A stretch of DNA of 64,000 nt from a virus (taxonomy: Duplodnaviria; Caudoviricetes), in the IMG/VR virus record IMGVR_UViG_3300001598_000037, positions 26,811-90,810 of that record; one strand, 5' to 3'. The notes below the pieces were generated by a model. The model was given only the letters and a program-made list of their open reading frames with translations, had not been told where the DNA came from and did not search any database. Shown piece after piece: positions 5,465 through 64,000 of the stretch; positions within the stretch are counted from its first letter, which is position 1; the number at the start of each line of letters is the position of its first letter. The position numbers and the translations under genes are program-made.

Positions 5465-6553
5465 ATGGCATATGACATTTTTAATCCAGAATATTCCCAA
5501 GTTGTAAAGGGTATGGCTGGAAAAGCATTTTTATTGTATGGTGGCAATGGTGTTGGTAAAACTCTTAATGCTGCCAAAGCTCCAAAACCTTATTTCATTT
5601 GTTTTGAAAAAGGTTTAGGTGCAATCAGTGGTGTAGCTCATGCTAACATTAAAAAGTGGACTGAATTTACTAGTATTGTAAAACAATTTACTTCTAAAGG
5701 CACAATGGAAAAAGCCAAAGAAATGTATCAAACTATCGTTTTAGATGGTATTGAAAACTTAGGTTTATTAGCTGATCCATTTGTTGCAGGTAAATACGGA
5801 GTAACTTCTGTATCCGAAGGTAAAAAAGGTTATGGTCTTTGGAAAGAATTTGAAGACGAATTAAGATGGCCTATCAAAGAATTATGTGATGCAGGATATA
5901 CTGTATTATTCTTAGGTCATGCTGCAGACAGAGATGTTCCTTCTCTTAAACCAAATGAAAAAGGCGAATATAAAGCAAAGAAGCAATTCCCTAAAGGTGA
6001 AAAGAGAGCTATTGATGTTATTATGAACGAATGTGACGTTATTGGTTATATTCAAGCTCAACCATCAGATGTAAGTGGAAACGAAGTATTATCAAAGATT
6101 TATTTTGCTAACAACATCGCTTTCCAAGCAAAAACAAGATTTAAATATCTTCCTAGAACTTTAGATGCTTGGTCTTATGAAAAATTAGAAGCAGCATTAA
6201 AGTGGGCTATTGAAAAGGAAGAATCTGAATCTGGTAAGAAAGCAATTTCTCTTCAAGAATCTTTAGACAAGATCGCTGAAGAAAAAGCAGCAGAAGCTGA
6301 AGATATTATTCCTCTAGACTTATTAGTAGAACGTATCGGTTTAATGTTAATGGATATGAAAGATAAGAAGGGAAATGTATCTGAATTTAAAGAAATCAAA
6401 GAAAAATTAGGATTACCTGATGATTTCAAATGTAATCAAGCGACTGAAGCTCAAAGAGAACATGTTGAAGAAATCTTTGTAGAATTAACTCAACGTGGAT
6501 ATTCTTTCGAACCAAAAGCAGACACAACAACTGCTGAAGAAACAAGTAAGTAG
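5465..6553 (+). CDS. Sak4-like AAA ATPase (recombination / replication initiation)
   Basis: Walker A LLYGGNGVGKT, Walker B TIVLDG, FLGH motif. Confidence 0.75.
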   Translation: MAYDIFNPEYSQVVKGMAGKAFLLYGGNGVGKTLNAAKAPKPYFICFEKGLGAISGVAHANIKKWTEFTSIVKQFTSKGTMEKAKEMYQTIVLDGIENLGLLADPFVAGKYGVTSVSEGKKGYGLWKEFEDELRWPIKELCDAGYTVLFLGHAADRDVPSLKPNEKGEYKAKKQFPKGEKRAIDVIMNECDVIGYIQAQPSDVSGNEVLSKIYFANNIAFQAKTRFKYLPRTLDAWSYEKLEAALKWAIEKEESESGKKAISLQESLDKIAEEKAAEAEDIIPLDLLVERIGLMLMDMKDKKGNVSEFKEIKEKLGLPDDFKCNQATEAQREHVEEIFVELTQRGYSFEPKADTTTAEETSK

Positions 6554-61580: not shown

Positions 61581-62089
61581 TATAGATCCTCCTCATCGAT
61601 ATCATCTAAGAAACGACGACTATTGCCGCCGCCCTTTACTTTTGTTTGACGACGTCTATTTCCATCGCCGTTATCACGTTTATCATAGCGTTTTTTACCA
61701 CCACCGTTTCCATGATGACGAGAATATGAAGAACCATATGAGCTGTCGTCATCAAATTCTTCTTCAAGATCATCATAGTGGTCTGGAGTTTTTGGAGCTG
61801 TGACTACTGGAATACCAACTATACCTGTAGCAATCGGATCCTTGCCAGGAGTAAGATTTTCTAGAAGCTTTGTAACCATTACTTCTTTACCAACAATAAT
61901 GTCGGCTTGAGTAAGAATGTTACGACCTTCCTTACCCAACATACTGAATGTAGAGAATGTTTTGATTTCTTTACTATCAATATTTGTGCTACAGTTAAAT
62001 CCTGCAGCAAATACGTTTGTGACTTTGGCTTTTAGATTGATACCTAAAGTCTTAGCTGTTTGGGCATTGCCCTTATAAATTGTTGCCAT
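61580..62089 (-). CDS. Possible OB/S1-like nucleic-acid-binding protein with charged tail
   Basis: Beta-rich N-terminus; G/R/D-rich disordered tail ending FLDDIDEEDL. Confidence 0.4.
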   Translation of the reverse strand: MATIYKGNAQTAKTLGINLKAKVTNVFAAGFNCSTNIDSKEIKTFSTFSMLGKEGRNILTQADIIVGKEVMVTKLLENLTPGKDPIATGIVGIPVVTAPKTPDHYDDLEEEFDDDSSYGSSYSRHHGNGGGKKRYDKRDNGDGNRRRQTKVKGGGNSRRFLDDIDEEDL

Positions 62090-62302
62090 AATTATTTTCC
62101 TCCTTATTATGACGTGTGTTATTCATAACTTTCACTGTTACTTTGTCGTCTTTCGCATCTTCGTGCTACCTTCCTCACTATATTCATCACAACGCGAGGG
62201 TCCAACATTTTTCGCAGATAGTCGTTATGAAAAATTGTTTTTCAGAACTTTTTGTCCTGATATCATGCATTTAATTATATAACTAAATGAATGATATCAA
62301 AA

Positions 62303-62333
62303 CAAAAACGGCCGAAGGTTGCCCAACGGCCGA
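62303..62333 (-). terminator. Intrinsic terminator
   Basis: CGGCCG-N12-CGGCCG plus TTTTTGTTTT on the minus strand. Confidence 0.75.
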
Positions 62334-62339
62334 TTTCTG

Positions 62340-62593
62340 TTAATCTGTATAAGGTTCAACTAAAGTGGCTTTCCACTTGTTACCAGAACCGTCAATTTTG
62401 ACATAGTTTTCCCACCAGCCGTGTCTTTCCGCACTATATGTATCATATAGTTTTTTGCGGTTATTTTTTAACCAATCAATAAATTGTTCTTGGTTGAGTG
62501 GTTGACTGAAGGTAAATATATATTCATCAGTGATGTCCGCATAAGGACGATGAGAATAATTATTTATTTCATCAACTAGTGTAATAGTGTCAT
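62340..62593 (-). pseudogene. 84-aa gene with an apparent 1-nt deletion near 62580
   Basis: 254 nt = 85 codons minus 1; RBS GGAG; MTLL(Q)LVDEINNYSHRPY...VEPYTD restored by CA to CAA. Confidence 0.65.
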
Positions 62594-62626
62594 CGCCTGT
62601 TCTCCAGACGATTATTTATTATTTTT

Positions 62627-63559
62627 TTATTCACAAGCCTTCATATCAGCCCATTGTACAGCTGATAAAAGTTGTATATTTTGTCCGATCCATAAACGGT
62701 CGGCTAGTGATAAATCGTTTTCGTCTTCAGCGTTCCACCAGCCCCCAGCCATGTGAAGAAGAACACAAATTCTTTCTCCCTGACTAAGAGCTATACTCAT
62801 TAAATCAGCATAGGCAACACTTGCTAAACCGTGGTGCTTAATCTTTTCTTTATCATATGTATAATTGCCGTCTGATTGTAGTTGATATAAGCCGATCTTA
62901 CAAAAATCATGGCACATGGCAACTCGAGCAACTTGATCGACAGTAAAACCGCCGATCTTTAAGACTCTGCTATATAAGTAACAAGCTAGTTTAAAACTAT
63001 GCTCGATTAAACCACCTTCATAATTTTGGTGGTGAGCCTTAGCGGCAGGAGCCTTTTTGAATTCGTTGAAGAAATATGGAAACTTCGAAATTCTTTCAAC
63101 GATATTATTACACGCTTGTATTAAATCATTAAGATCTTGTCCTTGAATAGGACAGCTGTCCCAAATGTAGTTATTGAAGATAATTTTTTGGCCGTTTGGA
63201 ATTCTTGCAGTGCATACAGCTGATTTCCATAAATGATACCAGCTTTTTTCTCCGCCGCCATAGATCTTTTCGCAGGTATATGAGAAGTTATCCCATGCAC
63301 CAGCCATCATGTTTTGGAAGCAATCGGCAGCAAAGCCGATGTCTCCATGGTGAATTTCATCACCTACGGTTTTGTAGTTTCTTGGGCAATCTTTTGCTGT
63401 TTCGCAACCAATTTCTTTTAGTTGTGAAACAACTTCTCTATAATTGAAAATGTTACAATCAAAATTTTCAATTATATCTAGGACTTTGATACAATCTAAA
63501 ATTGTATCTGTGTTTTGATTAGCAAAATTAATTACTAATCCATCAAATAATTTTTCCAT
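62627..63559 (-). CDS. HD-domain phosphohydrolase
   Basis: HHQNYEGGLIEHS, CHDFCKIG, HGLAS, LHMAG, QWAD. Confidence 0.85.
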   Translation of the reverse strand: MEKLFDGLVINFANQNTDTILDCIKVLDIIENFDCNIFNYREVVSQLKEIGCETAKDCPRNYKTVGDEIHHGDIGFAADCFQNMMAGAWDNFSYTCEKIYGGGEKSWYHLWKSAVCTARIPNGQKIIFNNYIWDSCPIQGQDLNDLIQACNNIVERISKFPYFFNEFKKAPAAKAHHQNYEGGLIEHSFKLACYLYSRVLKIGGFTVDQVARVAMCHDFCKIGLYQLQSDGNYTYDKEKIKHHGLASVAYADLMSIALSQGERICVLLHMAGGWWNAEDENDLSLADRLWIGQNIQLLSAVQWADMKACE

Positions 63560-63611
63560 AATTTTTTCTCCTTTATATAATATGATTCAGAGCATGGATT
63601 CTCTTTAGATA

Positions 63612-63665
63612 TCTTCCGTTTCGCTACTGCTCATCGGCTACGGACTTGCACCGTAGGACGGTAGT
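63612..63665 (-). ncRNA. Type III hammerhead ribozyme
   Basis: Minus strand CCGUC^CUACGG-UGCAAGU-CCGUAG-CCGAUGA-GC-AGUA-GC-GAAA-CGG; all three stems and the core present, with U4 changed to C. Confidence 0.8.
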
Positions 63666-63696
63666 TTATAGTCATTTCGGACCTATATCTTAAAGC

Positions 63697-63891
63697 CTAA
63701 ATATGATAGGCTCCAATATATGCTCTTGGATGTTTTTTGATAAAGATATCAAATGTCTTTTCATCCATAATTTTTGGACTAAAGCTTTTTTTACCTACTC
63801 TAAATACCACATGGCATTTTTCACGTGTATTTAAAGATTTAATTTGATAATATAATTCTATAGCCTTATTCTTTGCTTTGTTTTTGTCCAT
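63697..63891 (-). CDS. Basic hypothetical protein (64 aa)
   Basis: RBS AAGGAG. Confidence 0.7.
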   Translation of the reverse strand: MDKNKAKNKAIELYYQIKSLNTREKCHVVFRVGKKSFSPKIMDEKTFDIFIKKHPRAYIGAYHI

Positions 63892-63905
63892 TGTTATTCT
63901 CCTTG

Positions 63906-64000
63906 TTATAGATTTTTTAAAGCGTTTAAACGTTTTTGAAATTTTATTTGGCTTTTAAGATTTTTTAGAGAAACTGTTGTTTCAGACAATGTTTGTTTTA
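63906..64000 (-). CDS. 3' end of a gene running off the window edge
   Basis: Open frame KQTLSETTVSLKNLKSQIKFQKRLNALKNL* followed by an RBS. Confidence 0.55.
   Translation of the reverse strand, partial: KQTLSETTVSLKNLKSQIKFQKRLNALKNL

Follow-up and report, generated by a model that had tools for sequence, protein, structure and literature searches.

A predicted type III hammerhead ribozyme with cytidine at core position 4 between two genes of a phage operon, and the phage subfamily to which it belongs

Hundreds of hammerhead ribozymes of all three types have been described in bacterial and phage genomes, often flanking single genes, and for phage and prophage hammerheads in such positions, cleavage is known in vivo as well as in vitro (Perreault et al. 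2011, PMC3088659). A stem II of only 2 bp is common among natural hammerheads, and deviations from the consensus core, including the U4-to-C substitution (U4C), are on record; the core variants tested comprise A6C, A6a, U13a, U15.1-A16.1, U3-A8, U10.1-U11.1 and saltern insertions, and C4 is absent from among them (PMC3088659). According to the account of the work of Ambros and Flores (1998) that is given in the same paper, the U4C substitution considerably lowered the in vitro activity of a viroid hammerhead. Exhaustive mutagenesis of one type III hammerhead showed a low activity of all single mutants in the CUGA turn, with the exception of the C3/G8 swap (PMC9901934). Natural type III hammerheads are also known to share a loop-loop motif, with UNmYN in loop 1 and RNnA in loop 2 (Dufour et al. 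2009, PMC2632901). Full-text searches of the literature for U4C, CCGAUGA and T-loop hammerheads in phages returned no description of the C4 variant or of the subfamily presented here.

The window, i.e., the whole analyzed stretch of 64,000 nucleotides, comes from a 90.8-kb IMG/VR record that is ~66% complete. Direct reading of its minus strand at 63664-63613 reveals the layout of a type III hammerhead, with the following parts in the 5' to 3' order:

63658..63664, minus strand: 5' strand of stem III (CUACCGU), in which U16.1 is 63658; its partner is 63619-63613
63657, minus strand: C17, with the predicted cleavage 3' of it, between 63657 and 63656
63638..63656, minus strand: stem-loop I (CUACGG/UGCAAGU/CCGUAG), 6 bp with a 7-nt loop at 63650-63644
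63631..63637, minus strand: core C3-C4-G5-A6-U7-G8-A9 (CCGAUGA), with C4 at 63636 in place of the consensus U4
63623..63630, minus strand: stem-loop II (GC/AGUA/GC), 2 bp and an A.A opposition
63613..63622, minus strand: G12-A13-A14 (GAA, 63622-63620), followed by the 3' strand of stem III (ACGGAAG), in which A15.1 is 63619

The three helices are arranged round the core, with loops closing stems I and II, and with stem III open, which is the type III arrangement. The core nucleotides C63637, G63635, A63634, G63632, A63631, G63622, A63621 and A63620 are those of a hammerhead, the A15.1-U16.1 pair is formed by A63619 and U63658, and H17 is C63657, i.e., a nucleotide other than G. The sole departure from the core is the C at 63636, in the place of U4 of the uridine turn (CUGA). 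Stem III of the window copy consists of four contiguous pairs, an A.A mismatch and two further pairs, and is weaker than in most relatives. The element shares with the bacterial and phage type III hammerheads (PMC3088659; RF00008, clan CL00010) the three-way junction, the core, the A15.1-U16.1 pair, the GUC site, the 2-bp stem II and the place between genes of a phage operon, sometimes in clusters. It differs from them in having C for U4, and its subfamily differs from them in the strong conservation of U-R-N-R-A-G-U in loop I and of CGG/CCG in the inner part of stem I. A preliminary description of this DNA proposed a type III hammerhead with a U4-to-C core, with which the minus-strand letters agree exactly, and the comparative family described below is conserved and covarying. 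The cut that it placed at 63657/63656 coincides with the position of C17 at 63657. Its location of the element was also right, but the extent that it gave, 63665-63612, is one base too wide on each side.

The genes on both sides of the element are the following:

63697..63891, minus strand: upstream 64-aa ORF of no known family, with its stop codon 32 nt before stem III and 37 nt before the conserved CCGUC
62627..63559, minus strand: downstream ORF of 310 aa, with an HD-type phosphohydrolase domain at its C terminus and the RBS AAAGGAG at 63574-63568

Both ORFs lie on the minus strand, and the element is on the sense strand of both, as had been claimed; the distance from the cut to the HD-gene start, previously given as about 95 nt, is 97 nt when measured to the ATG at 63559. 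In a large protein collection, the HD protein has homologues of ~200 aa, which cover its C-terminal half only, and the N-terminal ~150 aa of the 62627-63559 (-) product appear to be an extra domain. The phage DNA polymerase shares 36% identity with YorL, a protein of SPbeta-like Bacillus phages, which makes a host from Bacillota plausible. As far as the contig extends, the element is located near the start of a run of minus-strand genes, most of them small, that spans 25 kb and in which the HD protein, a PcfJ-like protein and a Toprim primase are encoded. The run may represent an early operon, judging solely from its length and from the presence of the primase gene among small genes of the same strand. 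A scan of 62000-64000 for promoters and terminators revealed nothing beyond the shuffled expectation. A terminator-like match on the plus strand at 63650-63662 was rejected, being merely the complement of the stem III/stem I region. In this region of the minus strand, ACCGU-CCU-ACGGU at 63662-63650 could form a 5-bp hairpin that would bury the cleavage site and compete with stems I and III; the same kind of competing hairpin is a possible alternative in all members with a YUACGG stem I.

A relaxed type III descriptor with one core mismatch allowed had a single match in the window, which was this site, and zero matches in 60 block-shuffled windows. The preliminary description pointed to the Rfam Hammerhead_3/HH models as a check, and here the outcome was negative: none of the hammerhead models (RF00008, RF00163, RF02276) matched the window at the gathering threshold, and no hammerhead match appeared at E<=10 in the 401-base stretch 63450-63850. 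Taken alone, the silence of Rfam counts against membership, and hence the question was settled through the relatives of the element. At ten loci with siblings that have the canonical core, none attained the gathering score of any Rfam hammerhead model, and a search of one such sibling at E<=10 yielded no more than a partial RF02276 (type II) match of 17 bits, with no match to RF00008. As the canonical-core siblings are missed too, the silence is a property of the Rfam models, and the subfamily as a whole is missed by them. In fold prediction, the minimum-free-energy structure of a 111-151 nt context kept stem I, yet it was not the hammerhead fold; a fold containing the hammerhead was within ~0.5 kcal/mol of it.

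Neither blastn of 62600-64000 against the phage collection, nor a search of viral contigs with the HD protein as a query, nor an exact 30-mer of the element revealed any match or relative. The relatives were found by DNA pattern scans. The first pattern, in which only CCGAUGAGC-N3-6-GCGAAAC was fixed, was present in more than 118 viral contigs, ~55 of them with the full architecture, the remainder being chance matches in GC-rich coding DNA. The second pattern, in which C was disallowed at position 4, retrieved dozens of contigs with the same scaffold and the canonical CUGAUGA core, and its few matches with A or G at position 4 were without the scaffold. In the pattern scans, the scaffold was encountered well over a hundred times, in DNA of phages, prophages and metagenomes. 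Among these are eight copies in prophages or MAGs of Butyrivibrio, Lachnospiraceae, other Clostridia, Caproicibacter, Prevotellaceae and Paludibacteraceae, C4 being present in two of the eight. The identity of the flanks of the window copy to those of all other copies (0.54-0.65) is at the background level, whereas the identity of the hammerheads is 0.66-0.89. This combination of background flanks and a conserved ribozyme indicates that the element is a module occurring in many unrelated contexts. The copies are mostly intergenic: in 76 of 82 distinct contexts they are not within a sense ORF, and their median position in these contexts is 26 nt past a stop codon and 61 nt ahead of a start codon. 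A loose CNGANGA...GAAAC pattern and the models R1 and R2 (for the latter, see below) detected no second copy in the 90.8-kb, ~66% complete record. To judge from these sequences, the copies constitute a widespread (gut-)phage subfamily, characterized by a 6-bp stem I, a U-R-N-R-A-G-U heptaloop, and a stem II of 2 bp whose loop is (A/U)NNA.

In alignment A1 (62 distinct sequences, chosen partly on stem I pairing and found with patterns that fixed stem II and part of stem I), standard pairs occupied 90.8% of cells, as compared with 73% in shuffles and 29-42% with slid partners. In the same alignment, 9 of the 15 pairs varied on both sides, and the covariation score was attained by none of 500 shuffles. 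The scans fixed stem II as GC/GC, as well as GAAAC and CGGU...AGUCCG, so that conservation in these parts is partly by construction. Owing to this and to the selection for pairing, the clean evidence is that of stem III and of the three outermost pairs of stem I. At no stage was a pairing filter applied to stem III, which had at its third pair CG in 41 sequences, UA in 11, GC in 9 and AU in 1, and was unpaired there in none of the 62. The outer pairs of stem I, when the pairing filter was omitted, were standard in all 43 distinct C4 and all 89 distinct U4 sequences; these three covary freely, the inner CGG/CCG and the loop U-R-N-R-A-G-U being conserved. Stem II is invariant (GC/GC) in the subfamily and hence uninformative for covariation. 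Of the 132 distinct members, 127 have C as H17, and the other 5 have U.

The covariance model R2 was built from 40 members with the CUGAUGA core only, none of them from the window. It scored the window copy at 63.4 bits (E 4.8e-17), the next best match in the window having 11.8 bits, which indicates that the element is homologous to hammerheads with the textbook core. The lack of a Rfam match, and the resemblance of loop I and its closing pairs to the tRNA T-arm, might still suggest a fortuitous resemblance, or an element of the tRNA or T-loop kind without kinship to hammerheads. However, 60 shuffles gave no match, the R2 score was obtained against canonical-core relatives, and the full hammerhead core is present together with three stems, of which stems I and III covary. 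Moreover, the acceptor and anticodon arms of a tRNA are absent, and the site is not reported by the Rfam tRNA model. Such a look-alike is extremely improbable, being effectively refuted by the family covariation, the covariance-model score and the shuffles. By homology and anatomy, the element almost certainly belongs to the hammerhead lineage.

To see the variation of the core itself, we used a metagenome scan in which loop I, stem II and GAAAC were fixed and the seven core positions were free. The 117 subfamily copies obtained were distributed as follows:

CUGANGA: 74/117 (63%)
CCGANGA: 32/117 (27%)
G8A: 6/117
U3 with A8 (the known C3-G8 to U3-A8 covariation): 3/117
U3-C4-G8: 1/117
A6U: 1/117

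Among these 117 copies, G5 and A9 showed no change, position 4 was never A or G, and core changes other than C4 were rare, none of them singly exceeding ~5%. Position 4 in the scaffold is U in 63-70% and C in ~27% of cases, and the viral sample was similar, with ~25% of C4 by a hand count among the 80 rows listed. C3 combined with A8 was seen at the metagenome loci L267, L301, L344, L349, L352 and L358, and U3 with A8 at L319, L331 and L348; the C3/A8 (C.A) combination may be an intermediate toward the known U3-A8 covariation.

The 43 distinct C4 sequences represent 11 stem I haplotypes, and at least seven stem I haplotypes are shared by U4 and C4 copies, indicating that U and C were swapped repeatedly or were moved by recombination. 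In one locus, L069:1143-1986 (-), one C4 and two U4 hammerheads lie within ~800 nt and flank two small ORFs, a clustered arrangement of the kind known from prophage hammerheads (PMC3088659). Stem III of the C4 copies is 93-100% paired over pairs 3-5, and the core variation of these copies is confined to the free position N7, their other catalytic nucleotides being as invariant as in U4 copies. Decay would make transitions at other core positions about as common as C4. This is not the case, and thus C4 is a tolerated state rather than a product of decay. We conclude that the C4 copies stay under purifying selection for the hammerhead core, and on that ground they are likely to be active. The viroid variant, as far as it is described in PMC3088659 after Ambros and Flores (1998), carries the same substitution, which reportedly lowers activity in vitro and is nevertheless compatible with function in vivo. 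In contrast to that variant of one viroid, the phage C4 is fixed in many independent lineages and accounts for ~27% of copies, in which the rest of the core continues to be selected.

Two other interpretations of the C4 core have to be considered. The core could be catalytically dead or too slow, with the folded three-way junction retained for RNA stability, protein binding or recombination. That would fit the weak activity of CUGA-turn mutants in the tested scaffolds (PMC9901934; for U4C, the account in PMC3088659), as well as the existence of a hybrid copy with a broken stem III (L099, see below), which suggests recombination between copies. However, G5, A6, G8, A9, G12, A13, A14 and C17 are as invariant in C4 as in U4 copies, only N7 being variable, and since a non-catalytic scaffold has no need of catalytic nucleotides, their invariance counts against a dead core. 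In addition, C4 and U4 replace each other on the same stem backgrounds and adjoin in one operon, and a loss of catalysis seems to us unlikely. Alternatively, C4 could mark an attenuated or conditional version of the ribozyme, which would be slower, or would act only at low pH or high Mg2+, and would delay processing like a timer. A protonated C4 or its N4 amino group replacing the contact of U4 N3-H to the A6-N7 phosphate would be an example of how such a core could work. The frequency of C4 (27%, as compared with at most ~5% for every other single core change) is consistent with a special state of this kind. So is the tendency of C4 copies toward a longer stem III (pair 5 is paired in 93% vs 70%, and pair 6 in 81% vs 48%), which might compensate for a weaker core, or might just as well stem from the dominance of one lineage. 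Nevertheless, C4 showed no association with N7, with H17 or with the loop sequences, C4 and U4 occur in the same kinds of intergenic sites, and we regard a conditional ribozyme as quite improbable.

Both alternatives left aside, the observations are probably best explained by a cis-acting, cleaving type III hammerhead of the phage subfamily. The hammerhead would be transcribed in cis within the leftward polycistronic RNA of an SPbeta-like phage. Upon folding of stems I, II and III, the 2'-OH of C63657 would attack its 3' phosphate, which would free the RNA of the upstream small ORF with a 2',3'-cyclic phosphate end and leave the HD-gene RNA with a 5'-OH end, starting in the ribozyme's own stem I hairpin. 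The polycistronic RNA is most likely cut after C63657, and we think there is a good chance that this copy self-cleaves usefully in vivo. We infer a useful cleavage rate of the C4 form and, as its purpose, the separation or insulation of neighbouring cistrons; co-transcriptional self-cleavage separating neighbouring cistrons is the best-supported mechanism. The element can be considered a probable RNA processing site ahead of the HD-phosphohydrolase and primase genes. As for the two core states, we suggest only tentatively that U4 is dispensable in this scaffold, that C4 allows self-cleavage, perhaps with an altered rate or pH/Mg2+ dependence, and that the two are kept as interchangeable states, possibly tuning the speed of cistron separation. 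If this is true, the 'invariant' hammerhead core would have to be rewritten as CYGANGA for a natural subfamily missed by current models. Searches requiring CUGANGA undercount phage ribozymes. A natural, abundant and selected U4-to-C core is in conflict with mutational studies that hold U4 essential, and natural pairs matched in their stems and differing in U4 or C4 offer a means of probing the part of the uridine turn in catalysis.

A timer operating through the attack of RNase J on the 5'-OH end is speculation. The new 5' nucleotide would be paired in a 6-bp hairpin, and the downstream message could just as well be protected or insulated by it. Structured 5' ends can protect or insulate a message, as is known from 5' stem-loops and engineered ribozyme insulators. 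The synthetic insulators of the RiboJ type combine the sTRSV hammerhead with a hairpin; placed in cis before the RBS, the hammerhead removes the RNA ahead of it, and the message downstream acquires a structured 5' end. Unlike these synthetic parts, the window element is natural, and its insulating effect is putative.

The loop I consensus, U-R-N-R-A-G-U, matches U1, R4 and A5 of a T-loop at the sequence level only. A T-loop, such as that of the tRNA T-arm, is a five-nucleotide U1...A5 motif in which U1 and A5 form a reverse-Hoogsteen pair and a base can intercalate into a gap that separates positions 4 and 5. Loop I could be a T-loop or could participate in the known loop-loop motif of natural type III hammerheads, as its sequence fits both equally. 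As in the latter motif (PMC2632901), loop I of the subfamily is a heptaloop with an invariant 5' U, and loop II, in most cases RNNA, has an invariant 3' A and shows an R:A opposition. Contrary to it, the pyrimidine on the 3' side of loop I is last and not penultimate (G6-U7), and stem II has only 2 bp against the 6 bp of stem I.

Several other features of the copies and their contigs were observed. Immediately upstream of stem III, 132 of 182 distinct contexts (73%) had a hairpin with 5-11 bp, as compared with 48/182 far upstream and ~42/182 in shuffles. About half of the copies (187 contexts) had a stop triplet in or at the loop of this hairpin, as in GGCAGAC-UAA-CAAUCUGCC, where UAA is the stop of the upstream gene. 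Among the many copies with the 5'-adjacent hairpin are L009:1260-1285 (-), L215, L216, L217, L218 and L220. This hairpin covaries from copy to copy, and cleavage would place it at the 3' terminus of the upstream RNA. It is missing from the window copy. Here, minus-strand 63695-63685 and 63612-63603 (CUUUA-A-GAUAU and AUAUC-UAAAG) could form a 10-bp helix with one bulged A. The hammerhead and a small hairpin (63683-63670) would lie inside this helix, which would extend stem III coaxially. If real, the helix would hold the cleavage products together.

In the hybrid copy mentioned above, L099:1385-1441 (+), as in L036, the 5' half of a common C4 copy (UUCCGUC...) is joined to a U4 3' flank of the L133 type (GAAACGCUACUU), and comparison with L133:2683-2739 (+) shows that the join in L099 breaks stem III. 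It looks like the product of recombination between two hammerhead copies, and hammerheads of this kind may act as short patches of homology shared by phage genomes. In L041, the 3' half (CCGAUGAGCAGGAGCGAAACCCUAUGA) of the C4 hammerhead at 5470-5526 (+) recurs 225 nt downstream at L041:5725-5751 (+), with no stem I hairpin or GUC ahead of the repeat, which could be a partial duplication or a split arrangement. Contigs with U4 members additionally encode a skipping-rope RNA (76.6 bits, L127:9181-9261 (+)), a gut-2 RNA (48.7 bits, L129:6734-6781 (+)) and, in the contig with the latter, a cluster of five tRNAs (L129:126-660 (+)).
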